From NCBI GenBank assembly GCA_963749125.1, contig CAVVLL010000001.1, forward strand, positions 53,724 to 117,723: DNA of 64,000 bases, given 5' to 3'. Below the pieces are notes generated by a model that worked only from the letters and a program-made list of their open reading frames with translations, was not told where the DNA came from and ran no database searches. Made by a program: the position numbers and the translations under genes. The DNA is from an uncultured bacterium. Lineage in GTDB: Bacteria > 4484-113. Position 1 is the stretch's first letter. Every line of letters begins with the position of its first letter. This document shows positions 33,064-55,623 of the stretch, piece after piece.

Positions 33064-34824
33064 TTAAGCCTTGGGTGGCTTAACAAAGAGCTTCTTCCAA
33101 GCGCGCTTCGTAAGCGCGTCCTCAATGCTCCCCGGCAGGTCGCAGAACACGCCATGCTGCGGCCATCCAGTGATGAGGCCGTCCTTTCCGCCAATCCAGT
33201 TGTAGGAATCCCTTCCCCCGCCTTCGTCAATGAACAACGATAGCGAAGTCCCGCCGTGATAGTCGTTGCCACCTGCGCGCGCCTGCCCTGCGGGGTAATC
33301 GTAAATGTCGTTACCGCCTCGGTCCCACATCACGCAAAGCGCGTTGTGCGCCGATGCGCCCTGCGAGAAGCCCCCACCGCCCTCGTAAACATCGTCGCCG
33401 CCGCCTTCAATGAACATGGTCACGCATTCATCCCACGCCAGTCCTTGCGCGACAGCTTGGCGCGTGCGGTAGCGGTCGTCACCTGAATCTTCAATAAAGC
33501 AGCCGACGGCCTGGTGTGCGCAAAAGCCCTGGTTGTATCGTGAACCGATGTAGCGGTCGTCGCCTGCGAAGTCGCGCAGGAAGCCGTAGCCGAAGTAATA
33601 CCCGCCGCCTTGCGAGAAGTTGCCGGCCTCGTAATAATCATCGCCAGCGAAGTCCATCATCCCCGCGATGCCGCCCGACGCGTATTCGCGGAAACCCATC
33701 GCGCATCCCTGCGACCATGCGTCAAAGATGCCCGCGTCGCCGTAATTGGTCGGATACTTCCCCGAGGCGTAACAGAAGTCGTCGCCGGCGGCGTCAATGT
33801 GCATGCCGATTGCGCGCGCGCCTGCGAAGCCCTGCGACTTGCACTGCGCCTCGGCGCGGTCGTTTCCGTCAAGGTCAATCTTGAGCCCGACGCCGAATAT
33901 CGCTGCGCCCTGCATCAGCTCTTCGCCGCGATAGGTGTCGTCACCGGCGCTGTCAATGAGCGCGCCTGCGCCCATGAAACCCGTCCCCTGCGACCATTGC
34001 AGGCCAACGTATTCGTCATTGCCCTGCATATCAATTAGCAGCCCGACTCCCATTGACCCGCTGCCTTGCGAATAGCGCTGCGTTGAAGAATAGTCGTCGT
34101 TGCCGCTGCATTCAATGAGCACGCCTACTGGATGCTTCAGCGAAGTCCCCGACCCCGCCGTCGTCGTGTAGAAGTCATTACCGCCAAGGTCAATGAGCAG
34201 AGTAGGAGCTTCGCCCTGCCGCCATGTCTTCCCTTCGCCAGAAATGATGAGCTTGCCCAATGGCGTTTCGCGTACGATCAAGTCCGTATCGGTTAGCTTT
34301 GTTGCGAACTCAGCGCGCAGGTCTTCCTGCATCGCCTTCAAGTAAGCGCCGTCAGTAACGCGCGCGAGCTGCATCTGCGCCAGCATTAGCTCGCCATAGT
34401 TGATGCGCTTCGCCATCTGCACAAGTTTAATGTTGCCCTTCATTCGCGCACGGTCTTCGTCTTCGTGGATGTAAGTCATCCAACAAAATACGTCGGTGAG
34501 CTGCTCGCGCTGCGTTTCAAGGAACGCTTTCTCTTCGTCGGAGAAATCCACGAACGCGGCGTTCACGTGCGTCGCGGCAGCGTCAAGAATCGCGTACAGC
34601 TGGTCAAGGTGTTGCTCAGCAGTCAGGCCGGTCTTCAGCGGCGAATATGCGGTCTTGATGGGCGCGATGTCCTGCAGGTCGCGCACCTCGTTGAGCAGCG
34701 CGCTGTAACCGTCAATGCCGCGTGACACGTAATCGCGCGCATGATCTGTGAGACTACGCGTGATTCTTTCGTCTCTTAAGTCCATCGCGCAAAATGTAAG
34801 TCGTGCGCTTGAAACGATAGCCAT
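33064..34824 (-). CDS. Repeat protein with about 13 G(N/D)DxY-containing units of about 26 aa after an N-terminal domain of about 200 aa (start uncertain, 34785-34896)
   Basis: Recurring xID..G(N/D)D.Y....SQG.G..G.G units (LGGNDFY, SGNDDY, QGNDEY, AGDDTY, AGDDYY, AGDDRY, SGDDRY, GGDDVY, GGNDIY ...). Beta-solenoid/beta-roll-like periodicity. Confidence 0.5.
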   Translation of the reverse strand: MAIVSSARLTFCAMDLRDERITRSLTDHARDYVSRGIDGYSALLNEVRDLQDIAPIKTAYSPLKTGLTAEQHLDQLYAILDAAATHVNAAFVDFSDEEKAFLETQREQLTDVFCWMTYIHEDEDRARMKGNIKLVQMAKRINYGELMLAQMQLARVTDGAYLKAMQEDLRAEFATKLTDTDLIVRETPLGKLIISGEGKTWRQGEAPTLLIDLGGNDFYTTTAGSGTSLKHPVGVLIECSGNDDYSSTQRYSQGSGSMGVGLLIDMQGNDEYVGLQWSQGTGFMGAGALIDSAGDDTYRGEELMQGAAIFGVGLKIDLDGNDRAEAQCKSQGFAGARAIGMHIDAAGDDFCYASGKYPTNYGDAGIFDAWSQGCAMGFREYASGGIAGMMDFAGDDYYEAGNFSQGGGYYFGYGFLRDFAGDDRYIGSRYNQGFCAHQAVGCFIEDSGDDRYRTRQAVAQGLAWDECVTMFIEGGGDDVYEGGGGFSQGASAHNALCVMWDRGGNDIYDYPAGQARAGGNDYHGGTSLSLFIDEGGGRDSYNWIGGKDGLITGWPQHGVFCDLPGSIEDALTKRAWKKLFVKPPKA

Positions 34825-35458
34825 CGTCGGGCGTGGCACGGTTGTAGAGGCGCAGCCACAAATCGTCGCAATCTTTGCGGATGCCGAATGCGTCAATCAT
34901 CTCGTCCATCAACGACCGAACTTGCGGGTTGGCGTCGGTAATCCCCGGCAGCAACATTTCGTTCGGCGCAAATGCACTTGTCCCAACTTCCGGCCGCTTT
35001 GCAAGGACAATTGTTGCTGTGAATGTAGTCGGTTCATTGACCGCGTCAAGCTGCGCTTTCTCCCCAACCTTCAAGTTGCCAACAATCGGCGCGAACTCAC
35101 GTAAGGGATCGGCGGTTGTATATGGCGTACCATTCAACGCGATGCTAATCTGCGGCCCGGGGCGGAAGATCTCAAGCTCAAGCGTATCGTCAACCTGCTT
35201 GTCCTTGAGCGCGTCCTGCAAAGCTGCAAGGAAACCAGCGCTGTCGCCTTCCAGCTTCTTGCCTTCAATGCCGATGATGATGTCGCCGGTGCGCAATCCT
35301 GCCAGTTCCGCAGGCGATTCCTGCACGACTTCTAGCTGGATGCCAGGCGGCTCGGTGACAACCGTCATGCGTACGCCCATATAGACGCCGTCGGCTGCGA
35401 ACGCCGCTTTCGCCACGAGAGTCAGCATTGCCGCTATGATTAAGGCAAGTAGCCTCAT
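34754..35458 (-). CDS. Periplasmic PDZ-domain protein
   Basis: Signal peptide. AELAGLRTGDIIIGIEGKKL is a PDZ core. Confidence 0.7.
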   Translation of the reverse strand: MRLLALIIAAMLTLVAKAAFAADGVYMGVRMTVVTEPPGIQLEVVQESPAELAGLRTGDIIIGIEGKKLEGDSAGFLAALQDALKDKQVDDTLELEIFRPGPQISIALNGTPYTTADPLREFAPIVGNLKVGEKAQLDAVNEPTTFTATIVLAKRPEVGTSAFAPNEMLLPGITDANPQVRSLMDEMIDAFGIRKDCDDLWLRLYNRATPDDGYRFKRTTYILRDGLKRRKNHA

Positions 35459-35499
35459 ATCCTTCCCCCGATTGTTAATAACTACTTACGCTGAGTGCG

Positions 35500-36390
35500 T
35501 CACTTGATGTTGACTGCCGCCGGTGCAGTGCCGCTGGCGGGCTTTGTGTAATCAAGCTCCGAGCCAAACAGGCTGTGCGGGATCATGAACACTGCGAGCA
35601 TGATGAATGCCGCGATGAACGCTGCCCATCTCGCCCGCCTCGCAGCCTTTAAGGCAGGCATTCCGCCGCTGCGCGCTATGACCACCAGCGCGACCACCCA
35701 AGCAATGAGCGCAATCAGCGTCTTGTTGTCGGTTAGGTCCCAGCCCAGCGGGACGCCTGTCCACCATTCGCCGAAAGCGTAATGCTGCATTATCGGGCCA
35801 AATACGAAGCCGCCGATGAGCAGCGTGATGAACGTCCACCACACGAGCTTGCGCAAGTTGGCTCCGCCCGTAATGGCTTCCAGCCCCGCGCGCGCAGCCA
35901 TGAGCATCGCGCCGAACATTAACAGCACGTGCAGGACAGTGATGAAGACAGGAACGCTGCCCTTGAAGCGGATGACGGCGGGCGTCGCGGGGAACCTCGC
36001 CTCGGATGGGCCGTTGCGCACGACGATGTAATACTCTATCTTGCCTGCGGGGGGCTGCGACGGGATGTACGCCGCAAGATCTTCGCCCTCGCGCGCCAGT
36101 ATCATCGCTTTCAGCGGGTCGGATGACTTATAGCGTTTGAAGAACGCGACTCCCGCAAATCCCTCGGGCGCTTTGAATGCTACCCGCGCGTCCTTGGTCG
36201 CTTCGCTGGAGCGTAGCAGCTTGTAACGGATTTCCTGGCTGCCCACTTTCGCAGTGCCTTTAATCGGATACGTCGGGCCGGTCGTGCGCTGGTAATACGC
36301 CGAAAGCAGCGTGATTACCACCGCAAGCACCCATAGCCAAGTCCCAGTAATTTTCGCGCGCCGGTTCATCCGGCTGGTTTCGTCTCCCAT
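35500..36390 (-). CDS. Integral membrane protein (one N-terminal transmembrane segment, a periplasmic domain, then four transmembrane segments)
   Basis: Hydrophobicity pattern only. Confidence 0.5.
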   Translation of the reverse strand: MGDETSRMNRRAKITGTWLWVLAVVITLLSAYYQRTTGPTYPIKGTAKVGSQEIRYKLLRSSEATKDARVAFKAPEGFAGVAFFKRYKSSDPLKAMILAREGEDLAAYIPSQPPAGKIEYYIVVRNGPSEARFPATPAVIRFKGSVPVFITVLHVLLMFGAMLMAARAGLEAITGGANLRKLVWWTFITLLIGGFVFGPIMQHYAFGEWWTGVPLGWDLTDNKTLIALIAWVVALVVIARSGGMPALKAARRARWAAFIAAFIMLAVFMIPHSLFGSELDYTKPASGTAPAAVNIK

Positions 36391-36456: not shown

Positions 36457-37449
36457 ATGAGATGCTTGGATACCGGAGCGAGAATGTTTCTGCCTGAGTT
36501 TCCAAGCGCAGCATGGCTTAACTCAGAGCCCCTAACCAGGGCAAGCATTGAAGGCCGCGTTGTCCTCGTGGATTTCTGGGACTACACCTGCGTGAATTGC
36601 ATACGCACGCTTCCGCACATCCGCGAATGGCACAGCAAATATAAAGATAAAGGCCTTGTTATCATCGGCGTTCACACTCCTGAATTCATTTTCGCCCGCG
36701 AGAAGGAGAACGTCGCCCACGCCGCGCAATCCTTCGGCCTGGACTACCCCATCGTTCTTGATAACGATTACTTGATTTGGAACGCATTCGGCAACCGCTA
36801 CTGGCCGGCAAAATATTTCTTTGACCACCGGCTGCGTCTGCGCAACTCCCATTTCGGCGAAGGCGCATATGCAGACAGTGAGCGCGGCATCCAGGCATTA
36901 CTGCACGACCGCGACGCATCTGTTGAACTGCCGGAAATAATGAAGACGCAAGCCGCTCCCGATGAAGGCGCATTCTGCGTGCCTGTGACACCGGAGCTCT
37001 ATCTTGGCTGGGCGCGAGGCATGTTCGGCAACGCAAGCCCTGTATACAACGGGAAGCCCAGCCCCTTCAAGCTGCCGGATAAGCTGGTGCCGGACATGGT
37101 TTACTTGGACGGTGAGTTCATGGTTAGCCAGTGGGGCGTATCGGCGGCCGGCTCAGGCGATAGGCCTGCGAGGCTATTGCTCAAGTATGAAGCGTTGGAA
37201 GCTAATATCGTCTTGCATCCGCCGCCGAGCGGGCCGGGAATGCTTGAGCTTAGACACGACGGTGAGCCGTTGAAGTTGAACATTGCGCCGGAAGCAGTCA
37301 GCGAAGACGGCAAGACTATACTGCGCGTGGACGTCCCCAAGATGTATAACCTCGTGCGCAACCCGCATGTTGAATCCCACACGCTTGAACTTATCTGGCA
37401 TACGGCAGGGATTGAAGCGTTCGCTTTCACCTTCACAAGCTGCGGTTAA
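36457..37449 (+). CDS. Thioredoxin-like (TlpA/redoxin-type) protein with a CxxC motif and a C-terminal domain
   Basis: VVLVDFWDYTCVNCIRTLPHI...IIGVHTPEF matches the redoxin-fold signature. Confidence 0.7.
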   Translation: MRCLDTGARMFLPEFPSAAWLNSEPLTRASIEGRVVLVDFWDYTCVNCIRTLPHIREWHSKYKDKGLVIIGVHTPEFIFAREKENVAHAAQSFGLDYPIVLDNDYLIWNAFGNRYWPAKYFFDHRLRLRNSHFGEGAYADSERGIQALLHDRDASVELPEIMKTQAAPDEGAFCVPVTPELYLGWARGMFGNASPVYNGKPSPFKLPDKLVPDMVYLDGEFMVSQWGVSAAGSGDRPARLLLKYEALEANIVLHPPPSGPGMLELRHDGEPLKLNIAPEAVSEDGKTILRVDVPKMYNLVRNPHVESHTLELIWHTAGIEAFAFTFTSCG

Positions 37450-38858: not shown

Positions 38859-39212
38859 CTATGTCTTTGACCAAAGGCCGAGCTTGTTGCCAAGGCTGTC
38901 CCGGAAGTAGCAGTAGTAGCCCATCTGCCCATTGGCAATCGCCGTCTTCTCGGTAATCCCTTTGCCGCCGTTGTCTGCGATCTTTCCCAGCATCGCGGGG
39001 ATGTCATCGCATTCAATTATAAGCACGCAGCCGCCTTCGCTGGGTTTCTCCGTTCCATCAAAGCCGCCGCCCAAAGTATCATCGCCGATTTTAATCATTG
39101 CATAGCGGCCATCGCCCCAAAGCTCTACTTTCCAGCCGAAAACCGTCTCATAGAAACGCTTCGCCTCGGCCATATCCGGCACGGGTATTTCAAAGTGACA
39201 GATGTCGTGCAT
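38859..39212 (-). CDS. Glyoxalase/bleomycin-resistance (VOC) family protein
   Basis: HFEIPVPDMAEAKRFYETVFGW. 117 aa. Confidence 0.75.
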   Translation of the reverse strand: MHDICHFEIPVPDMAEAKRFYETVFGWKVELWGDGRYAMIKIGDDTLGGGFDGTEKPSEGGCVLIIECDDIPAMLGKIADNGGKGITEKTAIANGQMGYYCYFRDSLGNKLGLWSKT

Positions 39213-39320
39213 CGTGTCTCCTCCAAATTAATGGTCGCCCATTTTCGCACAAATACCCATGTTCTAGAGAATTCCTATGCTAAAATGCTCCTAGGGAATC
39301 CATCCGTAGGAGCGGGAAGT

Positions 39321-39812
39321 ATGAAGTTACAGCTACACAGCCTGTCGCCGTTGCAAATCATGCTTGCGGGGATCGCAGCTTTATCCCTGCTGGCCGCATG
39401 TTCAACCACGCACGTCCCAATTTCCGAGGCTGCCCTTCCTGGCCAAGTGAAATTGGCGTCCGACGTCCCGCCAACACCCGTCAAATCAGTAAACGTCCCG
39501 CCATTGGGTGAGGCCAATCAGGTTAGAACCATCGGCTACCATATTGACGGCCTCGGCGATTATAACCTAACCTGGCGCTACCGGCTGCTCGGAGACTACA
39601 ACCTCACGCTTAATGTTGACGTCTCCGATATAACTCCAATCGCGATGCACTTCGGCGAGACATGGGACCCCCTCGTCAATCCGGACAGCGCGGCTTCGGT
39701 CGTTGACGGAAGCGGGAATCTCACCGTCGGCGTAGAGGATATCACGCAGATTGCGATGAACTACAACCGCCGTTGCGTCTCCTACCGGGTTGAAGGCTCA
39801 GGCCGCAATTGA
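39321..39812 (+). CDS. Lipoprotein with a dockerin-like duplicated Ca-binding-type segment
   Basis: Lipobox LLAAC. Two segments NVDVSDITPIAMHFG / VVDGSGNLTVGVEDITQIAMNY resemble dockerin repeats. Confidence 0.45.
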   Translation: MKLQLHSLSPLQIMLAGIAALSLLAACSTTHVPISEAALPGQVKLASDVPPTPVKSVNVPPLGEANQVRTIGYHIDGLGDYNLTWRYRLLGDYNLTLNVDVSDITPIAMHFGETWDPLVNPDSAASVVDGSGNLTVGVEDITQIAMNYNRRCVSYRVEGSGRN

Positions 39813-40296
39813 CGGCATTTATGCCGAAGTCGGCAACGCCCCCTGCCCCACCGGATCGTCGGTGGACTTGGGCTGGCCGGAAATCGCCTTCAGCTTAGGC
39901 GCTACTCCAGCATACGAATGGTACCGCGTAGTGCCATTAGATAATGAAGGAGTCGCCGGGATAGAAAGCATCCCTGTCCATTTCGTCCCGGGCGGGGGCG
40001 GCGGCTTAATTATCAACCTAGTATCAATCGCTGAAAGCGGCACGGGCATGGAAGCGGACCCCTTCGTCATCCTCACCGGCACCGCCTACGAGATAGCGGT
40101 TGAAGATGAACACGGCAACCCGATAACCGAGGGAATTGAATTGCACGTCCAGCCCCCCTTCCTTGCCGAAGCCACTTCAACCTCTCCATTCACTATTACC
40201 CACAATGGGACTGTGACGGGCGACTTCTACGTTTACGCCACATCAGGAAGCCTGTTCAGTAACAGGCTGTATTTCCGAATACCCGGCTTGCCGTAA
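39790..40296 (+). CDS. Hypothetical protein (TTG start). Possibly the frameshifted continuation of 39321..39812.
   Basis: The ORF overlaps the upstream gene end by 23 nt in another frame. Confidence 0.35.
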   Translation: MKAQAAIDGIYAEVGNAPCPTGSSVDLGWPEIAFSLGATPAYEWYRVVPLDNEGVAGIESIPVHFVPGGGGGLIINLVSIAESGTGMEADPFVILTGTAYEIAVEDEHGNPITEGIELHVQPPFLAEATSTSPFTITHNGTVTGDFYVYATSGSLFSNRLYFRIPGLP

Positions 40297-40345
40297 GCCT
40301 GGCTAAAAACAACGCATAGTGTAATCTGGACGGAGGTAAGTCCAC

Positions 40346-43168
40346 ATGAGGACAGTAATCACGTTCATTATCGCAGCCTTAGCGCTAGCCATTCTCTTTG
40401 CCCTCTACTCCTGCGGAGGACATTCCCGCAAGGCTGTGACTTTAGCTAACACGGCTCCAATCGCCGCTCCGGCGGGGCAGCTATCTCTTAGCGTGAGTTG
40501 GCCACAGTCGCTGCCGGTTGACAAGCTCCAGCCCTGGGAGACGCTAGACGGTTCAGGCCGCTTGGCAAGCAGTATCAACCTGCAATCCCAGTTCGTCCCC
40601 GGCGCAGACCGCTTCCTTGAAGCTGGCGATGTGGTCAACCTTGGCGAGGCCTCGCGATTTGCCTCGGGAACTGCCGGCAACCGTGAAGTCTCATATGCCC
40701 TCTACCGAATACCAATGGGCTCGGAGCAACCGGGAACTATCGCCGCCGACGTGAACATCCTCGCCGGCGCTGAATACTACCTCGGCGTGGCCGACTACTC
40801 CGCCAACACCTGGCGCTGGCACGGCCCCTTCGCCGCTAACCATGTCCGCGTATCCCTGCCCGACTATGCATACACCAGCTCGCTGGGTAACTTATTCCTC
40901 GCGGCTGTGGCGTTTGACGGCTCTTCCTTTGACCTGGTCGGCCTGGGTGTGAACGCACGCGACTATGCTGACACTACGCCACCGCCAGCGCTTGCCGATG
41001 CGCCGTGGGTATCACCCTACAACGGAATGGTTCTAGTGGAATGGCCGCAGGTTGTAGCCTCTGACCTTGCAGGCTACCGCGTATACATAAATGGCGAAGA
41101 CGCTCTCGGCTACATAGAAGGCGGGACCGATGTCGCAGTGCCCACCGATGACGTTGTGGATGTAGCCGTAAGCGCAGTGGATATCAGCGGTAACGAGAGC
41201 GCCCCATCACCCGTTACAACGCAGGGGATGCCTGCTGGCACACCACCGGCTTGTCAGCTAATATCTTCCTCCGCATCCGGCATGCGCGGTGACATCATCG
41301 CCCTAACAGCATCCGGCGGCGACACCTACGACTGGGACATTGACGGCGACGGCAACTGGGATATGGTCGGCGTCACCGACACAAACGCCTTCGCCAACAC
41401 CACCAACATGGGCATCATCCGCCCGCGCATCTACGCGCATACCGCTGACGGCGGCTTCTGGATGGGCGCGGTGAGCCTCGTGATCGCAGGGAACTCGCGG
41501 CCGGTGGTCATGGCTACTGCGGACGTTATGTCCGGCCCTGCGCCTCTCAACGTTAACTTCTCGCTGATAGCTGAAGACGATGACGGCACAATCGTGGAAT
41601 ACGCCTGGGACTTTGAAGGCGACGGCATCTTCGACGCCACCTCGCCGGTCAATCCCACTCCCCTGCCATTCAGTTACCCCGCGACCGGAATGTATAACGC
41701 CAAGTTCCGCGTAACCGACAATGAAGGCGGATGGGACGTGGATACCGTCGCCATAAATGTCGCCGGAAGCCTTCCGCCCGTCGCCCTGCTAAACCTGAAC
41801 ACCGAGAAGGCATTCATGGGAGACTATGAAAGCGATGAGATTGTCTTCAACGCATCCGCAAGCTACGACCCCGACGGCGGGGCTCTTGAATATGCTTGGG
41901 ACTTGGACGGCAACGGCTTCTTCACTGCTTTCGGTGGTAACTCATCGCAGGCTAGGGTTTATACATCTCCAGGAACCCACCTCGCCAGCGTCCGCGTCCG
42001 TGACCCGCAAGGGATGGTGGCTGAGGCTTCGCGGCAAGTCTATGTTTACCGCTATATCTCTCATCTCGTAAACTCTGCAATCAGCGGCCGATATCCATCT
42101 CTTAGGGATGTTGGCGGCAAGCCTGCTATCGCGTTCTATGATTATACAAATAAAGATTTGATGTACGCGCGGGCTTCAACGGCTTCGCCATCAAGCACTG
42201 ATAATTGGCAGGTCCATTCTATCGATACAACGGACGACGTTGGGTCTCAGCCCTCGCTAGTTATCTTGACTGATGGCAATCCGGCGATGGTTTATCTGGA
42301 CCAGACTAATGGCTTGCTGAAGTTCGCACATTCAAACACAACCATCCCCGATAGCTCAGGTTACTGGTCAATACACACCGTCGTAGCAGCTAACGCAGCA
42401 ACGATGTGGGAAGATATCAGTTGCCAGTTGTGCCGCGGAGTTCCTATCATCTCTTACTATGATACTGCTACCCAAGACCTAAAATTCGCCAGGTCAACAC
42501 TGGAAATCCCCACTGCCACCGTGGATTGGGCTACACATACAATTGACAGCGGCGGCGCTGTAGGGCCGTACTCCGCTCTTTCAATAGTGACCACTGCAAC
42601 CGGCGAGTTGCCCGCGATTTACTACTACAATTCGACAAACGGCGACATCAAATATGCTCGCGCCAACTTATGGCCGCCTTCGGGTGCCGGTGATTGGACT
42701 ATTTACACACTCGACGATGGCGGCGGCAATTCTGTTGGCCAATACACCATTGGTGCCCTTCCCGATCCGGGGATTAACAATGGCAATCCTGTCGTGGTCT
42801 ATTTTGATGATACAGCTATGGACTGCAAAATAGCTTTGGCAAACACCCTTGAACCGTCCTCTTCCGCAGATTGGAACATCTACGTCCTGCGCGACGGTTC
42901 ATGGTACGTTGGCTTGAGCGCTTCGGTGCTACGCTATGGAGGAAGGCTCTTTGTCAGCTTCGGCGACCATGACAGTGAATACACATGGCTTGCGAAAGCT
43001 ATTGTCGGCAATCCAACATCTGTATCCGACTGGTGGTTCCACAGGATTGATGGCTCGTCATCAACCGATTGGTTCGGTACAAGCCTCGCGCTGGTGGACG
43101 GCAAGCCTATGCTTGCATATTACCAATACAGCTATTATCGGCTGAACATAGCTGTGCCTACGCTATAA
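40346..43168 (+). CDS. Large surface lipoprotein with an N-terminal domain, FN3-like domain, PKD domains and seven C-terminal repeats of about 52 aa (putative beta-propeller)
   Basis: Lipobox LYSC. PKD signatures EYAWDFEGDG and EYAWDLDGNG. C-terminal repeats of the form PSL...G.P.IAYYD.TN.DLKYA...P....DW..H.ID. 940 aa. Confidence 0.7.
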   Translation: MRTVITFIIAALALAILFALYSCGGHSRKAVTLANTAPIAAPAGQLSLSVSWPQSLPVDKLQPWETLDGSGRLASSINLQSQFVPGADRFLEAGDVVNLGEASRFASGTAGNREVSYALYRIPMGSEQPGTIAADVNILAGAEYYLGVADYSANTWRWHGPFAANHVRVSLPDYAYTSSLGNLFLAAVAFDGSSFDLVGLGVNARDYADTTPPPALADAPWVSPYNGMVLVEWPQVVASDLAGYRVYINGEDALGYIEGGTDVAVPTDDVVDVAVSAVDISGNESAPSPVTTQGMPAGTPPACQLISSSASGMRGDIIALTASGGDTYDWDIDGDGNWDMVGVTDTNAFANTTNMGIIRPRIYAHTADGGFWMGAVSLVIAGNSRPVVMATADVMSGPAPLNVNFSLIAEDDDGTIVEYAWDFEGDGIFDATSPVNPTPLPFSYPATGMYNAKFRVTDNEGGWDVDTVAINVAGSLPPVALLNLNTEKAFMGDYESDEIVFNASASYDPDGGALEYAWDLDGNGFFTAFGGNSSQARVYTSPGTHLASVRVRDPQGMVAEASRQVYVYRYISHLVNSAISGRYPSLRDVGGKPAIAFYDYTNKDLMYARASTASPSSTDNWQVHSIDTTDDVGSQPSLVILTDGNPAMVYLDQTNGLLKFAHSNTTIPDSSGYWSIHTVVAANAATMWEDISCQLCRGVPIISYYDTATQDLKFARSTLEIPTATVDWATHTIDSGGAVGPYSALSIVTTATGELPAIYYYNSTNGDIKYARANLWPPSGAGDWTIYTLDDGGGNSVGQYTIGALPDPGINNGNPVVVYFDDTAMDCKIALANTLEPSSSADWNIYVLRDGSWYVGLSASVLRYGGRLFVSFGDHDSEYTWLAKAIVGNPTSVSDWWFHRIDGSSSTDWFGTSLALVDGKPMLAYYQYSYYRLNIAVPTL

Positions 43169-43213
43169 CTGGAAGTACATTTCGCTTCGGCGATCTCGAT
43201 GGAGGTGTGTTCT

Positions 43214-46043
43214 ATGAAAAGGCTATTCGTTTTAATCTTTGGGGTTGTGGTTTTGGCGTTCATTGTCGCATTGACTGCATGTGGTGGAAACACTCGCAAG
43301 GCTACAGCTATCCCCGTGCTTTCGCCTGATTACGCCACAATGCTACAGCCGACGGCTAACTTGAGCTGGCCACAGTCGCTTCCGGTTGACAATCTCCAGC
43401 CTTGGGAAACGCTGGATGGCTCGGGACGATTGGTAAGCAGTATTAACCTGCAATCCCAGTTCGTTCCCGGCGCAGACAGATTCCTTGAAGCAGGCACAGT
43501 TACCGACTTAGGTGAAGCTTCTCGTTTCAACTCAGGCGATGTCGGCAACCGCGAAGTCTCATATGCCATTTACCGCATCCCGATGGGTGCTGAGCAGCCG
43601 GGGACCATCGCCGCCGATGTAAATGTTTACATCACAAGCGACTACTACGTCGGGATTGCTGACTACTCCGCCAACACATGGCGCTGGCACGGCCCATTCA
43701 AAGCGAACCATGTCCGCATTCCCCTGCCCGACCACGAATACACCAGCACTCTGGGCAACCTGATGCTGGCGGTCGTCGCATTTGACGGCGCAATGTTTGA
43801 CCTGGTAGGCCTGGGCGTGAACGCACGCGACTATGCCGACTCAACAGCGCCTGACGCCCCTCCTGCCCCGGTACTCACGCCAATCCCCGGCGGCTTGCTG
43901 GTGGAATGGCTGCCAGTGGTCGCTTCCGACTTGGCGGGCTACCGAAATCTACGCCAACGGGGCAGAGGCGCTGGGATACGTTGAGGGCGGAACCTCAGTT
44001 GTCATTCCTGCTGCTGGCCTTACTGAAATCAGGCTGCGCTCGGTGGATGTCTCCGGCAACGAAAGCGATTTCTCTGAGCCTGCTTCTGCGGGCGCGATGG
44101 AAGGCTACTTGCTCAACGTCATCCTGGCTACCACGGCAGCGTCAGGGCGCAGGGGCGAAATCATCGCGCTTAACGCCATTGGCGGCGAATCTTACGACTG
44201 GGACGTTGATGGCGATGGGACTTACGACGTCACCGGCGACCTGACTGGCACCGCGTTCGTCAACACCGATAGCTTAGGCATCATCCGCCCGTCTGTCCGT
44301 GGACACCACTCTAACGGCAGCTTCTGGATGGCTGCGGTGAGCCTGATTATCTCCGGCAATTCGCGGCCGGTGGCGATGGCGACGGTAGATATTGCGTCCG
44401 GCCCCGCCCCTCTGATGGTGAATTTCACCATTGTCGGTGAAGATGATGATGGGACTATCGTTGAGTATGCCTGGGACTTTGAGGGTGACGGCATCTTTGA
44501 CGCTACCTCGCCGGTCAATCCCACTCCTTTGCCATTCAGCTACCCCGCGACCGGAATGTATAACGCGAAGTTCCGAGTGACCGACAACGATGGCGGATGG
44601 GACGTGGATACCGTCGCCATAAATGTCGCCGGAAGCCTTCCGCCAGTCGCCCTGCTTAACCTGAATACCGAGAAGGCCTACATGGGCGAGCTTGCTCCAA
44701 GTGACGAGATTATCTTCAACGCATCCGCAAGCTACGACCCTGACGGGGGCTCACTTGAATACGCCTGGGACTTGGACGGCAACGGCTTCTTTACCGGCTT
44801 CGGGCCAGGTGCGATTATTGCTCAGGCGTATAATGCGCCGGGAACTTACCAGGCTGCAGTCCGCGTCCGCGACGCTCAGGGCATGGTAACCGAGGCTTCG
44901 CGCCAAGTGTATGTTTACCGCTGGAAGCGCTACAGCATTGATTCTACTTCATCCCCTATGCGGCCTTCAATTGCCATATCTGCAGGATATCCTGTATGCG
45001 CATATTACGGGAGCGGAGCGCAAGACTTGATGTTCGCTTATGCGACTACTAAATACCCAACCAGCAATTCTGACTGGCGCAGTTACGCGATAGAAACTAC
45101 GAATGCGGTAGGAGATTGGCCGTCGTTAGTGGTTTTAGGTGATGGCACCCTTGCAGTCTCGTACTCCGACGCTTCGAACGGTGACTTGAGATTTGCGTAT
45201 TCAAACTCCGCCTTACCAATTTCAAATGCTGATTGGTCCATATACCCGATAGACACAGGGGGATCCGTAGGTCTCTACAGCTCAATAGCACTTCGTGATG
45301 GATACCCCATCATTAGCTATTACGACTCTACTAATAGCGACTTGAAGTACGCCGAGTCTTCAGTGACAAATCCGACTTCCGCGCTTGAATGGGTCACCCA
45401 TACGGTTGACGACGGTACTAATGTTGGCCAATACACGCGTATGTGCGTTGTATCAACACCTACTCTGCTTCCTGCTATTGCATACTATGACCCAGGCAAT
45501 CAATCGTTGAAGTATGCCCGCGCAACTATCTCATCGCCCACTTCGTCTAGCGACTGGATTATCCACACTTTAGCAACCGGAGCGCAAGCTGGATACGCTG
45601 GCTTGGGTGCGCTACAGTATCCCGGCACCACTAACGGGAATCCAGTAGTAGCCTATATTGATTGGGATAACTACGATTTGAGAATTGCCACTGCAAACGT
45701 CTTGGAGCCTTCCGGCCCAGGGGATTGGAACGATTACATCCTTGACGATGGAATAAACTTCTATATCGGCCATTCAGCTACGGTCATGAAACATGCAGGC
45801 AGGCTGTACGTTGCCTACAACGATATGGATGATTATATCTATGATCTGAAGCTTGCGAAATCCAAAGTGGCTAATCCGGCTTCACCATCAGACTGGACAC
45901 TCCATACCGTGGACTCAAGCTATGCCTTCATTGACTGGTGGGGAATCAGCATGACGCTGCAGGATGGAAAAGTTGTTTTGTCATATGGGAATGATAGTGG
46001 TTTGGGCCGACAAATCAGCATCGCCATTCCGGCTCTTGAATAA
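43214..46043 (+). CDS. Paralogous large PKD/repeat lipoprotein, interrupted by a 1-nt frameshift near 43944-43947
   Basis: Same architecture as 40346..43168. ORFs 43199..43984 and 43833..46043 join if one base is restored in ...ggctaccga(g)aaatctac... (DLAGYR | EIYANGAEA). Confidence 0.6.
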
Positions 46044-46093
46044 ACGTCCGCTTCTTTGAGGAGTGGGCTGTAATTTGCCTGACTGGGGCGCGC

Positions 46094-46130
46094 TTTCATC
46101 GCGAAGGCGCGCCCTTCTTTATGTGGCCGC
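46094..46130 (+). terminator. Putative intrinsic terminator
   Basis: ggggcgcgc-tttcatcgcgaag-gcgcgccc followed by ttctttatg. Confidence 0.5.
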
Positions 46131-46201
46131 GCTAGGCAGGCGTTGCAGGAATCTCATGGGTGCTGAATAGCGAAAGCCTGCCGGAGGGCAGGCATAAAAA
46201 A

Positions 46202-46318
<117 letters not shown>

Positions 46319-46324
46319 ACAGTG

Positions 46325-46352
46325 ATTATACAACACCTAATGCGCGTGTCAA
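46325..46352 (-). promoter_or_regulatory. Consensus sigma70-type promoter driving the 5S rRNA
   Basis: The minus strand reads TTGACA-cgcgcattaggtgttg(16)-TATAAT-cactg, then the 5S 5' end. Confidence 0.6.
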
Positions 46353-46379
46353 GAGGTTTGCGCGCGGATTCTTGTTTTT

Positions 46380-46610
46380 CTAAGCCTCGCCGGGTTTTCC
46401 CTTTATGGGCGGGGTTTGCAGCGGCTGCTTCTTGGCCTGCGACATCATGGCGTTGATAAAGCGCATCTTCTCAATCTCAAGGACTGAGACCACGCGCATG
46501 TCGTTGGTCTTGCCCTCCACTTTGACCTCAACGCTGCCGTCGTTATAGAACTGGATGTTTATCACATACGAGCCTGCGACTTCACGCTGCTTTGGCATTG
46601 CGCCCTCCAT
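46380..46610 (-). CDS. Hypothetical small protein (76 aa)
   Basis: ORF with a start codon abutting the rdgB stop. No motif. Confidence 0.45.
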   Translation of the reverse strand: MEGAMPKQREVAGSYVINIQFYNDGSVEVKVEGKTNDMRVVSVLEIEKMRFINAMMSQAKKQPLQTPPIKGKPGEA

Positions 46611-47218
46611 TAGCGAGCTAGATATTCGGCGATAAGGTTAAGCGTCTTGGCGCGGTGGCTTATAGGCGCCTTCTTCTCCAGGCCGCATTCGCCGAAAGTG
46701 CAGCCGTAAGGCGGGTAGTAAAAGACCGGGTCATATCCAAAGCCGTTGTTGCCGCTTGGCCGAGTGGAGATGGTCCCGCGCACCTCGCCCTGGGCTTCAG
46801 CGAGAATATCCGTTCCGCGCACCAGCGCCATTGCCGACACAAACCGCGCTGCCCTGCTCTCCTCGTCCAGGCATCCGGCCTCGCGCAGCTTTGTAAGGAC
46901 GATGGCCATGCGCTCGGGGTCGGTTGGCGCGATGCGGCTTGAGTTCACGCCGGGAAAGCCGCCCAGCGAGAATACTTCCAGCCCCGCGTCTTCCGCAAGC
47001 ACCAGAGTGCCGTAAGCCAGGTGTTTCGCGAGCGCCATTGAGTAATACAGGGCTTTAGCGCGGGCGTTCTCGGCAAAGGTGGTTCCCGGCTCCGGCGGCT
47101 CTAGGACTTGCGGGAAATCTTCAAGCCCAAGGATGATCACCCGTCCGGCAAGCCTCACAATCACTTCCCGCAGTTTGCCCTTGTTGCTGGTGCCGAATAG
47201 AACTTTAGGTAAAAACAA
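46610..47218 (-). CDS. rdgB: Non-canonical purine NTP pyrophosphatase (RdgB/HAM1)
   Basis: FGTSNKGKLRE, GFGYDPVF and SHRAKT motifs. Confidence 0.85.
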   Translation of the reverse strand: MFLPKVLFGTSNKGKLREVIVRLAGRVIILGLEDFPQVLEPPEPGTTFAENARAKALYYSMALAKHLAYGTLVLAEDAGLEVFSLGGFPGVNSSRIAPTDPERMAIVLTKLREAGCLDEESRAARFVSAMALVRGTDILAEAQGEVRGTISTRPSGNNGFGYDPVFYYPPYGCTFGECGLEKKAPISHRAKTLNLIAEYLAR

Positions 47219-52637: not shown

Positions 52638-53612
52638 GTGGACGAGACCGAAAAGGGGAAAGCTGCCTCCGAAAAAGCGCCCAAGCGCAGGCATGCGGCG
52701 TGGTGGGTGGAGATACTCATCGCCATCGCGGTCGTGCTCGTCATCGTTGGCATAGCGATACCGGCGTATAACCAGCACAAACTCACGCTTAAGACCGCGC
52801 AGGCAGAACAGAATCTTCGAGAGATAGGGTACGCATTAGGGGAATATTCCTCCAAAGATCAGAACGCCTGGAAGTTTCCTGAGTACCTAATCGGAGGAAG
52901 CGCCCCTTCCACTGGAAGCAAGGACGCATCCGACCCGCTAATCCGCGAAGGTTATCTCGCTTCATATCCTAAGAACCCATTCGCAGCGATGGTGAACGTG
53001 AGCGAGATACAGAAGAAATACAACGACCCACTAAGGCCTGGCGGTGAAGGCTCCAAGTTTGGCTTTCGTTTCGGCGAAGACGGCGCGCTCATGGGAAACG
53101 TGCTGGCTGATGTGCGCTTCTCCGGCAAATACGCCGAATTCGGTTATCCCTTCTATGATTTATGGCCAAAAGACAAGCGCCGTCCAAAGGAATATATCCC
53201 CGGCGCGTTTTTCTATCGCAGTTGTCCGACGCTCGTTTCTACAAGTAATTTGTCAGGAGAACAGCCGAAATCCCAGTTCCGAAGCCCTGAGATGTATGGC
53301 AGCCTATGGTCAAGCGCCGCTTATGCGAAGCGGGCTCCATGGGTGCCTAAAGGCGGCGCCGAGAACTACATACTTGGGCTGTATGGGCCAATTAACAGCC
53401 CAGGAAAAGATATTCTCGGCGAACCTCAAATGATGGTCTATTACTATCCCATACACAAAGATCGGGAGAAGGTAGGCGTGATGGGATATACATACAGTGA
53501 CCCTAATAAGACTTCGCCATTTGGTTCCCAGATTGATCTTGAACCACCTCTCAATCCAAATGGGATTCCCGATTGCATTGTGTTCAATTGGTATGGACCG
53601 ATGGATTCATGA
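52638..53612 (+). CDS. Pilin-like protein: type IV prepilin-like N-terminus plus a globular domain of about 290 aa (paralog 1 of 4)
   Basis: KRRHA|AWWVEILIAIAVVLVIVGIAIPAYN aligns position-for-position with G|FTLIELMIVVAIIGILAAIAIPQY (Glu at +5, Pro at +22, Tyr at +24). Confidence 0.6.
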   Translation: MDETEKGKAASEKAPKRRHAAWWVEILIAIAVVLVIVGIAIPAYNQHKLTLKTAQAEQNLREIGYALGEYSSKDQNAWKFPEYLIGGSAPSTGSKDASDPLIREGYLASYPKNPFAAMVNVSEIQKKYNDPLRPGGEGSKFGFRFGEDGALMGNVLADVRFSGKYAEFGYPFYDLWPKDKRRPKEYIPGAFFYRSCPTLVSTSNLSGEQPKSQFRSPEMYGSLWSSAAYAKRAPWVPKGGAENYILGLYGPINSPGKDILGEPQMMVYYYPIHKDREKVGVMGYTYSDPNKTSPFGSQIDLEPPLNPNGIPDCIVFNWYGPMDS

Positions 53613-53627
53613 TTTCAGGAGAGAACA

Positions 53628-54641
53628 ATGAGCGCTGAGCGCGGGAATCATCTTGTGAGAAAAGGGAACGAGCGCGCGTTATGGCTCGTTGAAATCACGT
53701 TAGCGTTAATCCTCATCGTAATAATCGCGGGAGTTGCAATGCCAAGCTACACCGCGCATAAAAAGGCTAAGCTACACTCCGAGCTCAACAGCGGTTTATA
53801 CGAGATTCAACAAGGGCTTGAACGTTTCGCCGTTGACCACGGCAAGACGTATCCTGACTACCTGATTGGCGGAAGCGCACCAGACTTTTCGGGGGATTTC
53901 GGCAATTCATCCCCGCAGGCGTCGGACGTTTTACTGCGCGAAGGATACTTACAGGAATATCCGCCAAATCCATTCATGGTTACGCAGCAAGTGGAGGAAA
54001 TGCAGGAGGAATTTAGCGACCTTTTCCGCCCTGGGACTGCGCAGTCTATGTATGGCTGCCGCTTCGGAGATGATTATGACTTGATGGGCCAGGTGATGGC
54101 CGATTTTCGCTTCCCCAAGCTGGAAGGGCAGAAGCCGATTACCAAGGATGGGATGACCTATTACGATGATGTCCAATATCCCTGCTTTAATCTTTGGATG
54201 CTGGAGACGAAAAGGTTTTTCCCGGGGGAGTTCTTCTACAAGTCCGCCGGAAGCATCATGTTATCCAAGTTGTATAAGCCCAACCCCAACCAGCCGTTGG
54301 TAGCTGCTAAATCCGAAGTATATGTGCTCGGTGTTTATGGCGGCCCGCGCGACAAGGGCATGGATGTGCTGGGATGGGAGCCGCAAGTCGCATTCCGCAC
54401 CAAAAAGGCAAACTCAGAGCAGCCAGCCGAGTTCAAGCTTCCGCTTTGGACCCGCTCTTCAATGAGGACTTTTGGCGAAGGTAAGTATGTTTATTCAGGA
54501 AGCCCCTTCGGTGAGCCGAGGGAATACATAGATTACGGGTTTAGGCTTATCTCGTTTGACGGGCAGCAAGACGGAGTGATCACGACGATGCAACCAGAGC
54601 CGATCATCACCGCTTTTATCTCCGACGGGACTAAGAAATGA
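53628..54641 (+). CDS. Pilin-like protein, paralog 2 of 4
   Basis: ERA|LWLVEITLALILIVIIAGVAMPSYTAH. Shares YPDYLIGGSAP, REGYL..YP.NPF and PGEFFYKSAG with the other three. Confidence 0.6.
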   Translation: MSAERGNHLVRKGNERALWLVEITLALILIVIIAGVAMPSYTAHKKAKLHSELNSGLYEIQQGLERFAVDHGKTYPDYLIGGSAPDFSGDFGNSSPQASDVLLREGYLQEYPPNPFMVTQQVEEMQEEFSDLFRPGTAQSMYGCRFGDDYDLMGQVMADFRFPKLEGQKPITKDGMTYYDDVQYPCFNLWMLETKRFFPGEFFYKSAGSIMLSKLYKPNPNQPLVAAKSEVYVLGVYGGPRDKGMDVLGWEPQVAFRTKKANSEQPAEFKLPLWTRSSMRTFGEGKYVYSGSPFGEPREYIDYGFRLISFDGQQDGVITTMQPEPIITAFISDGTKK

Positions 54642-55609
54642 CCGACGAGATGAAGAGTGAGGAAGTAAAAGCGCCGAAGCGCAGGCATGCGGCTTGGTGG
54701 GTGGAGATACTCATCGCCATCGCCGTCGTCATCGTCGTCGTTGGCATAGCGATCCCGGCGTATAACGCAAAGAAGACAGAAGCGCGGCGCACAGAAGCCA
54801 AGGCAAAACTACACGAGATACAGCTCGCCATTGAGCACTCCGCGGTGGACACAGGCGGGACATACCCCGATTACCTCATTGGCGGAAGCGCGCCACGCGG
54901 CGACGACCCTAAGCAACCCTTTGCCAATGCATCCGACACGCTTTTACGCAAAGGATATTTAACCGCTTACCCCCGAAACCCATTCGCAGTGCCGCACAGA
55001 GTGGAGGCGATGCAGGAGAAGTACCGCGACCCGTTTAGGCCCGGCACAAGCGAGTCCAAGTATGGCTATCGTTTCGGTGAGGATTACATGCTCATGGGCC
55101 AGGTGCTCGCCGACTTTCGGTTCCCGAAGGCGCTTGTATTCAATGGCAAGAAGCTTACTTCGCACCCAAGCTACGCCGACTTCGGCTACCCATTCTGGGA
55201 TATCTGGCCGAGAAACTCAAAGCCTAGGCCATTCCTCCCGGGCGAGTTCTTCTACAAGTCAGCGGGGAATATCGTCGTGACTAATAAGGAAAGCGTTAAT
55301 CCAGACAGGCCGCTTGTGCCGACTATCGTAGAAATATACATGCTGGGTTTGTATGGTAGTGCGAAAGATACCGGAAAAGATGTCCTCGGAGCTGAGCCGA
55401 CAACGACTTTCCGGACTTATACAGACCAGGCAAAGACACTTGAGGAATTCACTGTTCCTGTGTGGACGCGCTCTACTGACAAGCCTGATAATAATGGTGA
55501 GTTTCTCGGTTCGCCTTACGGCCCTGGTGAGTGGCAATTTGACTACGAAAATCCCAACAAGATTCCAGATGCAATAATCCTCGTTATTGTCCCAGGCGAA
55601 GACACGTAA
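54638..55609 (+). CDS. Pilin-like protein, paralog 3 of 4
   Basis: KRRHA|AWWVEILIAIAVVIVVVGIAIPAYN. Conserved C-terminal domain. Confidence 0.6.
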   Translation: MTDEMKSEEVKAPKRRHAAWWVEILIAIAVVIVVVGIAIPAYNAKKTEARRTEAKAKLHEIQLAIEHSAVDTGGTYPDYLIGGSAPRGDDPKQPFANASDTLLRKGYLTAYPRNPFAVPHRVEAMQEKYRDPFRPGTSESKYGYRFGEDYMLMGQVLADFRFPKALVFNGKKLTSHPSYADFGYPFWDIWPRNSKPRPFLPGEFFYKSAGNIVVTNKESVNPDRPLVPTIVEIYMLGLYGSAKDTGKDVLGAEPTTTFRTYTDQAKTLEEFTVPVWTRSTDKPDNNGEFLGSPYGPGEWQFDYENPNKIPDAIILVIVPGEDT

Positions 55610-55623
55610 GGAGCGCAAGACTA

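Follow-up and report, generated by a model that had tools for sequence, protein, structure and literature searches.

An exported PDZ protein with a predicted beta-solenoid, encoded by one gene with a broken reading frame in an uncultured bacterium

The closest described systems to the locus presented here are the HtrA/DegP/DegQ and Ctp proteases, the RTX beta-rolls together with region IV of MpAFP, the right-handed parallel beta-helix proteins, and the PDZ-containing Pfam entry DUF6288. RTX repeats are 9 (or 18) residues long, and those of MpAFP region IV 19. A survey of PDZ proteins from bacteria found a protease domain beside the PDZ domain in 88% of the classified proteins (PMC6411480), so that a PDZ domain joined to a non-protease solenoid represents an unusual architecture. 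The present study analyzes such a case in a 64,000-nucleotide stretch of contig CAVVLL010000001.1 from an uncultured bacterium of the lineage 4484-113, hereafter the window. The minus strand from 35458 to 33064 is one gene for a Sec-exported protein of about 797 residues, not two genes, and the protein runs from a signal peptide through a PDZ domain, an all-alpha domain of about 220 residues and a beta-solenoid of about 385 residues to a short C-terminal helix (Table 1). We consider the explanation as a whole, in which a single split gene encodes an exported PDZ-alpha-solenoid protein with the roles proposed below, to be very probable.

Table 1. Positions of the features within the window
Feature	Position	Strand	Basis
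Membrane protein gene, 296 aa	35500..36390	-	ORF, hydropathy
PDZ-solenoid gene, 5' part, codons 1-228, first frame	34775..35458	-	ORF, homologue and DNA alignments
Sec type I signal peptide, aa 1-22, cleavage between AFA and ADG	35393..35458	-	Sequence, hydropathy
PDZ domain, aa 26-106	35141..35383	-	Pfam PDZ_2, family profile against PDB
All-alpha domain, aa 166-383 of repaired protein (predicted)	34309..34963	-	AF2 model of P0001
Frameshift site, one extra nucleotide	34774..34774	-	DNA alignment, repaired ORF
PDZ-solenoid gene, 3' part, codons 229-797 and stop, second frame	33064..34773	-	ORF, repaired-gene alignment
Beta-solenoid (predicted), aa 392-775, about 13 coils of 26-28 aa	33133..34284	-	Repeat spacing, autocorrelation, AF2

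Architecture of the encoded protein

The PDZ half begins with MRLLALIIAAMLTLVAKAAFA, directly followed by ADG, with a hydrophobic segment at residues 3-21 by hydropathy and no cysteine in residues 1-30; an N-terminal hydrophobic segment was likewise present in 106 of 113 full-length homologues. An earlier, sequence-only reading of this DNA had taken the PDZ half for a lipoprotein, an assignment rejected here because the cleavage site lacks the lipobox cysteine, and a lipobox-like motif occurred in just 6 of the 113. The same reading had found no signal peptide on the repeat protein, which is an artefact of the split, since the frameshift parts the repeats from the PDZ half that bears the signal at its start. 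The PDZ domain was matched by Pfam PF13180 (PDZ_2, 36.4 bits against a cut-off of 27, E 6.6e-9) and PF17820 (PDZ_6, 30.8 bits against 27), and the family profile matched PDZ domains of DegP, DegQ and HhoA in the PDB. The AF2 model of the full-length relative P0001 (pLDDT 91.3, pTM 0.89) shows the complete series of signal peptide, PDZ, all-alpha domain, solenoid and C-terminal helix, and the PDZ fold in it resembles the PDZ domains of HtrA and Ctp. Searched against PDB folds, the full-length model returned PDZ matches only. No Pfam match to the alpha domain was found among 40 members, and profiles of the alpha domain and solenoid returned nothing meaningful from PDB sequences, with matches to EFCAB6 and antibodies at E > 0.01. 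Neither the alpha domain nor the 27-residue repeat of the solenoid is represented in Pfam, NCBIfam or the PDB.

The repeat region comprises 12-13 units of 26-28 residues, in each of which a QG follows a G(N/D)DxY core, and successive G[ND]D motifs are spaced by 26, 27, 26, 26, 27, 47, 27, 27, 28, 28 and 15 residues. The periodicity is above chance: relative to 300 shuffles, autocorrelation with BLOSUM62 gave a z score of 3.5 at lag 26, 5.4 at lag 27 and 3.8 at lag 28, and scores of 3.2-3.4 at lags 52-53. The family consensus of a coil is GxGxLxDxxG(d/n)DxYxGxxxxQGxGxx, and coil 6 carries a conserved insertion of about 20 residues (KGKYPTNYGDAGIFDAWSQGC). Much of what the sequence-only reading had said of this region was borne out: every motif that it listed is present (LGGNDFY, SGNDDY, QGNDEY, AGDDTY, AGDDFCY, AGDDYY, AGDDRY, SGDDRY, GGDDVY, GGNDIY and GGNDYH), the period is near 26 rather than 9, and the Q-G segment behind each core is kept family-wide. 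Its proposal of a beta-solenoid also agrees with structure prediction, in which the AF2 model of the window solenoid (pLDDT 91.6, pTM 0.91) predicts, with high confidence, about 13 coils with 3-4 short strands in each. The top Foldseek match of the solenoid in the PDB was 3p4g, the Ca2+-dependent beta-helix of the antifreeze protein MpAFP, at a non-significant E of 0.13 (probability 0.51, TM 0.31-0.40), and neither the PDB nor the viral folds of BFVD gave anything at E < 0.1. The supposed likeness of the core to half of an RTX nonapeptide is found in the turn, which resembles the GNDxL part of the RTX/MpAFP Ca2+-binding turn.

Alternatively, the solenoid could be an enzyme of the right-handed beta-helix kind, pectate-lyase-like but divergent, that acts as a glycanase, lyase or esterase on polysaccharide of the envelope or outside the cell and has the PDZ domain as its accessory. 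This is unlikely in our estimation, and the evidence for it consists of the roughly three strands per coil of about 27 residues, a conserved acidic, histidine and aromatic stripe accompanied by the conserved insertion, generic beta-helix matches at E 2-5 (phage depolymerase 7vul and tailspike-like and pectate-lyase-like viral models), and occasional fusions to LysM or hydrolase domains. However, none of 48 members matched Beta_helix, NosD or Pectate_lyase (PF13229, PF12708, PF05048), the fold matches were all non-significant with TM <= 0.3, and carbohydrate-metabolism genes were absent among the neighbours.

One gene divided by an additional base

Three minus-strand ORFs are present at the positions reported earlier, at 36390-35500 (296 aa), at 35458-34754 (234 aa), and running to 33064 from 34896, 34824 or 34785. 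They had been read as three genes, which does not hold for the second and third, two frames of one gene displaced by a 1-nt insertion near 34774. The first frame continues into a premature TAG at 34756-34754, and the source record annotates the 3' part as a 573-aa ORF with its ATG at 34785, and the 5' ORF with 234 aa. In the nucleotide alignment at the frameshift site the window has CTTAAGAGACGAA and the relative L084 has CTGAAAGATGAA, which places the inserted base, ambiguously, within about 34774-34777. With base 34774 removed, the resulting 797-aa ORF aligns gap-free to P0001, P0243 and P0244, each also of 797 aa, at 85-88% identity. Across the window's frame-change point P0001 reads ...YILRDGLK and then DEAVTR..., and the junction is uninterrupted in P0001, P0003, P0004 and P0027. 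All 120 of the repeat-ORF homologues among the matches listed are about 800 aa long, most of them with PDZ Pfam matches, and the loci L084-L086 hold an intact 797-aa gene with the same neighbours as in the window. Compared with L084, dN/dS was 0.10 overall, and because it was 0.07 in the 5' part and 0.11 in the 3' part, both halves are under purifying selection. The frame break falls within helix 226-244 of the modelled alpha domain, not at a domain boundary, and leaves the N-terminal ORF of 234 aa and a signal-less C-terminal ORF of 573-610 aa.

The lesion is probably either an error, made in assembly or sequencing, or a mutation that inactivated the gene very recently. The inserted base lies outside any homopolymer, which is atypical of simple sequencing error. 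An exact look-up of the 573-aa ORF for an independent assembly returned no record, and the sole Logan contig with an identical membrane gene stops about 24 nt short of the frameshift site. The sequencing run ERR15459710, possibly that of the source sample, carries the identical membrane gene. A profile search with the alpha domain, limited by a word-index filter, returned 2 proteins from a set of 5.8 billion; one of them, P0389, was considered as a natural fission and rejected, being a fragment of a shattered homologue. The two annotated genes of the window are one, which corrects an annotation error, and the window copy would be either mis-assembled or freshly inactivated.

It could still be argued that the locus is an operon of three separate genes, for a secreted PDZ protein, a cytoplasmic repeat protein and a membrane protein. 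The source record has separate calls of 234 and 573 aa, the ORFs are co-stranded, with a 41-nt gap followed by an overlap, and no convincing terminator lies between them. We regard this as very unlikely, since the relatives all have a single gene of about 800 aa, what separates the two frames is a 1-nt indel within one helix of a folded domain, the C-terminal piece has no signal peptide and yet the intact protein is exported, and the membrane gene is missing from 75 of 80 loci.

Neighborhood and distribution of the family

The membrane gene lies upstream of the PDZ-solenoid gene, and its product has five predicted transmembrane helices (residues 14-32, 148-166, 182-200, 225-243 and 257-275), with a loop of about 110 residues between the first and second. 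It belongs to no Pfam or NCBIfam family and has 4,810 homologues in many phyla. With an HMM of this membrane family, a gene within 6 kb of the PDZ-solenoid gene was found in only 5 of the 80 genome loci, all in the closest clade. The membrane gene is a clade-specific neighbour from an independent and much more widespread family, and in the window it may be co-transcribed with the PDZ-solenoid gene; the operon with conserved synteny that had been suggested from sequence fails in this respect. No neighbour families common across clades were found. In other clades the neighbours are unrelated housekeeping genes (by eye RNase Y, GatC/GatA, RecA and Lgt), and at the window locus they are thioredoxin-like, membrane, QP-rich, DinB and MATE genes. 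A promoter and terminator scan gave counts at chance level.

At 50% identity the PDZ-solenoid family falls into about 3,300 clusters, with 3,301, 2,480 and 1,450 representatives at E <= 1e-3, 1e-10 and 1e-30, respectively. The solenoid is C-terminal throughout, and the proteins are mostly 750-850 aa long. Carriers among the Planctomycetota include UBP7, Brocadiia with Kuenenia, Phycisphaerae and Uabimicrobium, and other carriers belong to Eisenbacteria, Krumholzibacteriia, Terriglobia, Calditrichaeota and Spirochaetia. This is a large exported family under strong purifying selection in poorly cultured phyla, among them the Planctomycetota with their anammox bacteria and the Eisenbacteria. Its existing annotation goes no further than "PDZ domain-containing protein", an HMM search assigned the repeat protein to no Pfam or NCBIfam family, in keeping with the earlier failure to recognise one, and we found no paper on the PDZ-alpha-solenoid architecture or on DUF6288. 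An anti-phage defence system was also considered and rejected, as none of the three ORFs matched a PADLOC model. Rfam gave no match.

It is improbable in the extreme that the repeats form a Ca2+-binding beta-roll of the RTX type, as part of a toxin or adhesin exported by type I secretion. The G-(N/D)-D-x-(Y/L) core does resemble part of the RTX nonapeptide, GGxGxDxUx, and there is a weak fold likeness to the RTX-like region IV of MpAFP, with entries for RTX751 and RsaA ranking much lower, but the period is 26-28 residues and not 9, 0 of 48 members matched HemolysinCabind (PF00353) or any other Pfam model beyond PDZ even at E <= 1, the signal is N-terminal and of the Sec type rather than a C-terminal T1SS signal, and no T1SS genes lie nearby. 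That a programmed +1 ribosomal frameshift yields the full-length protein from the split frames is scarcely credible. The frames do overlap, with the shift required after CTT AAG and before the TAG that lies 21 nt further on, and the zero-frame codons past the site are AGA and CGA, Arg codons that are rare in some genomes. However, neither CTT-A nor AAG-A is well suited to +1 re-pairing, and the site is not conserved, the frame being uninterrupted in relatives at 85-88% identity.

Possible function and comparison with known systems

For the single exported PDZ-alpha-solenoid protein, the best guess at function is a Ca2+-stabilised binding or enzymatic module of the envelope, targeted by its PDZ domain. 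The mature protein likely works outside the cytoplasm. Each coil has an invariant D-x-x-G-(D/N)-D-x-Y turn, and these turns, stacked along one edge, probably stiffen the solenoid, by binding Ca2+ or in some other way, as the turns of RTX and MpAFP do. An invariant stripe of Y/H/W/H/H (AHQ, AWDE, AHN and YH motifs in coils 7-12) probably faces outward, judging, as for the Ca2+ sites, from the repeat register only, and together with the coil-6 insertion would probably make up a surface for ligand binding or catalysis. In the numbering of the window solenoid, the invariant residues are H262, W289/D290, H318/N319, H348, the segment K179-C199 and S208-G210. The probable role of the PDZ domain is to tether the protein to, or target it at, C-terminal peptides of proteins in the envelope. 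Rare fusions in the family to LysM, additional PDZ or alpha/beta-hydrolase domains are consistent with an envelope role. Homology offered no guide to function beyond the PDZ domain in Pfam, NCBIfam, the PDB or BFVD. It is conceivable, if rather doubtful, that the family constitutes an undescribed class of beta-solenoid, with a 27-residue DxxG(D/N)DxY...QG coil and a possible Ca2+ ladder, conserved, nearly single-copy, in the envelope of Planctomycetota, Eisenbacteria and phyla close to them, and that its invariant His/Trp/Tyr face bears a new activity, as an enzyme or receptor, that the PDZ domain targets. The evidence so far points to no specific new mechanism, and the unusual architecture merits structural and biochemical study.

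Among described systems, DUF6288 shares a weak match in the PDZ region (profile positions 7-64 of 402, E 0.011), but its 15.4 bits are under the gathering cut-off of 26.3 and the remaining profile is unmatched. Similarity to DUF6288 was also seen in one long family variant. With the RTX beta-roll and region IV of MpAFP (3p4g) the protein shares a Gly/Asp-rich G-N/D-D-x-hydrophobic turn, one per coil, and differs in its coil of 26-28 residues, in its Sec rather than T1SS signal, and in having no HemolysinCabind match. The HtrA/DegP/DegQ and Ctp proteases likewise begin with a Sec signal and contain a canonical PDZ domain, and the best matches to the PDZ domain of the window protein were DegP, DegQ, HhoA and CtpB, but neither ORF has a trypsin-like (S1C) or S41 protease domain in Pfam, and the HtrA/Ctp models of NCBIfam cover the PDZ domain only, far below their cut-offs. 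Here the PDZ domain stands at the N-terminus, ahead of an alpha domain and a beta-solenoid without a known homologue. Right-handed parallel beta-helices, such as the pectate lyase-like proteins and phage depolymerases, are likewise long solenoids of a single chain, with about three strands to a coil and ladders in which Gln, Asn, Cys and aromatic residues stack, whereas no sequence family is matched, the fold matches are weak (E > 2), and the PDZ-solenoid family is set apart by its distinctive invariant DxxG(D/N)DxY...QG repeat.

One gene divided by a single extra base

The three minus-strand open reading frames proposed in the sequence-only reading are all present (see table), and the two downstream ones, the PDZ and repeat halves, are a single gene for an exported PDZ-alpha-solenoid protein, of which the window holds a broken copy called in the source record, an NCBI/ENA contig of 118,686 nt, as two fragments of 234 aa and 573 aa. 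Searching with the repeat ORF recovered 2,306 homologues, and among the best 120 nearly all were about 800 aa long, the majority with N-terminal PDZ matches in Pfam. The homologue P0001 (797 aa, 88% identity) runs continuously through the junction (...YILRDGLK-DEAVTRDITD...), where in the window one frame reads ...YILRDGLKRRKNHA to a stop and the other ...DLRDERITRSLTD.... Nucleotide alignment showed one base more in the window (CTTAAGAGACGAA) than in its nearest relatives (L084, the closest: CTGAAAGATGAA), and removal of base 34774 gave a 797-aa protein with zero gaps against three homologues of that same length (P0001, P0243, P0244) at 85–88% identity. The nearest relatives keep the same gene order around the intact gene: glyoxalase, isochorismatase, thioredoxin-like, 296-aa membrane protein, the gene itself, 226-aa protein, DinB, and MATE. 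The dN/dS ratio against L084 was 0.10 overall, 0.07 upstream of the break and 0.11 downstream, low on both sides, so both halves evolved as coding sequence.

The break could equally reflect an assembly error or a very recent inactivating mutation; the inserted base lies outside any homopolymer. If the frameshift is real, this genome could make nothing from the gene beyond a secreted PDZ stub and a cytoplasmic piece lacking the signal, and neither is likely to be functional. The structure model argues against functional gene fission, since it puts the break (residue 228/229) in the interior of the alpha domain, within predicted helix 226-244, rather than between domains. The uninterrupted frame in close relatives argues against programmed frameshifting.

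Other interrupted frames were seen. At L087:4001-7610, on a 190,868-nt contig, a homologue is broken into a consecutive series of five or more ORFs on one strand (364, 110, 210, 198, and 155 aa), a pattern resembling the indel errors of long-read assembly. A split copy of the gene in a MAG is not necessarily biological. The homologue on the complete chromosome of Candidatus Uabimicrobium sp. HlEnr_7 (NZ_CP165719.1; L073:7609-7611) has an in-frame TAA within its solenoid, between …GGGYYYGWGI and NDKGSDDDIYIGSR…; pseudogenization, sequencing error, and recoding are possible causes. Within the window, two same-strand ORFs at 39195-40296 (+), of 205 and 168 aa, share 22 nt; the frame of the second is open from 39760, and the first has dockerin-like repeats by eye (DVSDITPIAMHFGE, GVEDITQIAMNYN). 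The pair may represent another gene of the window split by a frameshift, which, if so, would favor assembly errors.

Protein anatomy and a possible conserved surface of the solenoid

Features of the membrane gene and of the PDZ-alpha-solenoid gene and protein (residues as in P0001, from its AlphaFold2 model)
Feature	Position	Strand	Description
ORF 1, membrane protein	36390-35500	-	296 aa
ORF 2, PDZ half	35458-34754	-	234 aa
ORF 3, repeat half	34896/34824/34785-33064	-	open reading frame, three possible starts
PDZ + small beta subdomain	residues ~28-151		predicted domain
All-alpha domain	residues 166-383		predicted domain
Beta-solenoid	residues 392-775		predicted domain
C-terminal helix	residues 778-789		predicted helix
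Coil-6 insertion			KGKYPTNYGDAGIFDAWSQGC, ~20 residues, conserved outside repeat consensus
ASGG			conserved outside repeat consensus
SRYNQGFCAHQ			conserved outside repeat consensus
QGLAWDEC			conserved outside repeat consensus
SQGASAHN			conserved outside repeat consensus
ARAGGNDYHGGTS			conserved outside repeat consensus

The repeat protein had been described as lacking a signal peptide and its PDZ partner as a lipoprotein. Neither description survives: a Sec type I signal (MRLLALIIAAMLTLVAKAAFA followed by ADG) lies on the PDZ half of the same gene, and since it has no cysteine the protein is not a lipoprotein. An N-terminal hydrophobic segment was present in 106 of 113 full-length homologues, a lipobox-like motif in only 6.

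Every repeat core listed earlier was found in the repeat ORF, with consecutive G[ND]D cores 26, 27, 26, 26, 27, 47, 27, 27, 28, 28, and 15 residues apart. Autocorrelation (BLOSUM62, background of 300 shuffles) peaked at lags 26–28 (z = 3.5, 5.4, 3.8) with a second maximum at lags 52–53, and therefore the periodicity is real. The suggested beta-solenoid was predicted with confidence, both in P0001 (alignment of 63 sequences; pLDDT 91.3, pTM 0.89) and in the window's own solenoid segment (pLDDT 91.6, pTM 0.91). Within a coil, a 6-residue strand (xGxLxD) leads through the turn xxG(D/N)D to a short strand (xYxG), and around the invariant Q-G lie one or two further short strands; the family-wide consensus is GxGxLxDxxG(d/n)DxYxGxxxxQGxGxx. 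Conservation beyond this consensus is concentrated in the C-terminal half, and YY, AHQ, AWDE, AHN, and YH occupy one common strand position on successive coils, a match in register suggesting an exposed His/Trp/Tyr stripe.

A tentative and rather doubtful mechanism is that the stacked DxxG(D/N)DxY turns would bind Ca2+ or otherwise rigidify one solenoid edge, that the coil-6 insertion and stripe would form a ligand-binding or catalytic surface, and that the PDZ would direct the protein toward envelope C-terminal peptides.

Membrane gene and gene neighborhood

The three-gene operon first proposed does not stand: two of its genes are one, and the membrane gene was found within 6 kb of the PDZ-alpha-solenoid gene at only 5 of 80 loci (tblastn; family HMM), all in the closest clade; at L001, one of the five, it is 3.7 kb off with another gene between. 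No neighbor family was common across the clades compared, and neighbors in the UBP7 clade, read by eye from sequences, were RNase Y, GatC/GatA, RecA, and Lgt. The 80 loci give no support for a conserved functional module of the two genes. In the window itself, the 41-nt gap with no convincing terminator would permit co-transcription. The membrane protein (five predicted TM helices and a loop of ~110 aa) belongs to an independent, uncharacterised family lacking a Pfam model and far more widespread than the PDZ-alpha-solenoid family, with 4,810 matches in Ignavibacteria, Zixibacteria, Aminicenantes, Bacteroidetes, and others. Elsewhere its members have different neighbors; in an Ignavibacteriales MAG (L081:4001-7650), for example, a 934-aa S8 peptidase gene lies 9 nt downstream of the homologue.

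Divergent from the membrane gene and 66 nt away is a thioredoxin-like gene (AhpC-TSA + Thioredoxin_10; 36457-37449, +), kept in the closest relatives (L084-L086) and found in 0 of the 80 genome loci. In L084 some 500 nt separate a glyoxalase-like from a Ham1-like gene, and the corresponding window ORFs (38859-39212 and 46610-47218, the latter Ham1-like by eye only) are ~7.4 kb apart with large ORFs of 940 aa (40346-43168) and 736 aa (43833-46043) between them, spacing which suggests an insertion at ~39200-46600 relative to L084. Four tandem paralogous genes (323-337 aa) at 52638-56622 (+) have in common a near-identical N-terminal segment (…APKRRHAAWWVEILIAIAV…).

Family distribution and comparison with known folds

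Purifying selection acts on the PDZ-alpha-solenoid family, which is conserved. With the window's solenoid as query, phmmer against 1.84 billion representatives matched 3,301 proteins at E <= 1e-3, 2,480 at 1e-10, and 1,450 at 1e-30, the solenoid being nearly always C-terminal in a protein of 750-850 aa. Genome matches were exclusively MAGs or enrichment genomes, from Planctomycetota (UBP7-type, Brocadiia including Kuenenia, Phycisphaerae, Uabimicrobium) and from Eisenbacteria, Krumholzibacteriia, Terriglobia, Calditrichaeota, and Spirochaetia. Longer variants have an extra PDZ, DUF4912 + LysM, or, in 3 of the 9 examined, an alpha/beta-hydrolase at the N-terminus. Of the long fusions of the core P0278, P0320, P0351, and P0385, these three are Hydrolase_4-like at the N-terminus and the fourth has DUF4912, LysM, and two PDZ; such fusions are compatible with an envelope role.

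That the family is unknown, as first read, stands. The sole recognised part is the PDZ (PDZ_2, 36.4 bits in Pfam), which matched PDZ domains of DegP, DegQ, HhoA, and CtpB in PDB by sequence and by fold. The alpha domain and solenoid of the window protein had no Pfam match at E <= 1 and none in NCBIfam or among PDB sequences, and no Pfam family recurred among 40 alpha-domain or 48 solenoid members. Fold search against PDB gave nothing significant, the top match being a Ca2+-dependent antifreeze beta-helix (3p4g, E 0.13, TM 0.31-0.40), followed by generic beta-helices (phage depolymerase, HMW1, FHA, RsaA) at E > 2; the best viral fold match (E 0.23) was likewise not significant. The resemblance to RTX holds for the turn motif, to which it is confined, and membership failed on period, Pfam test, secretion signal, and neighborhood. 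A survey of bacterial PDZ proteins (PMC6411480) pairs a protease domain with PDZ in 88% of classified proteins, and in the portion of its text searched the PDZ-alpha-solenoid architecture is absent from its families. Rather than a categorically new system, the family is a variant within kinds already known, namely beta-solenoid repeat proteins and periplasmic PDZ proteins.
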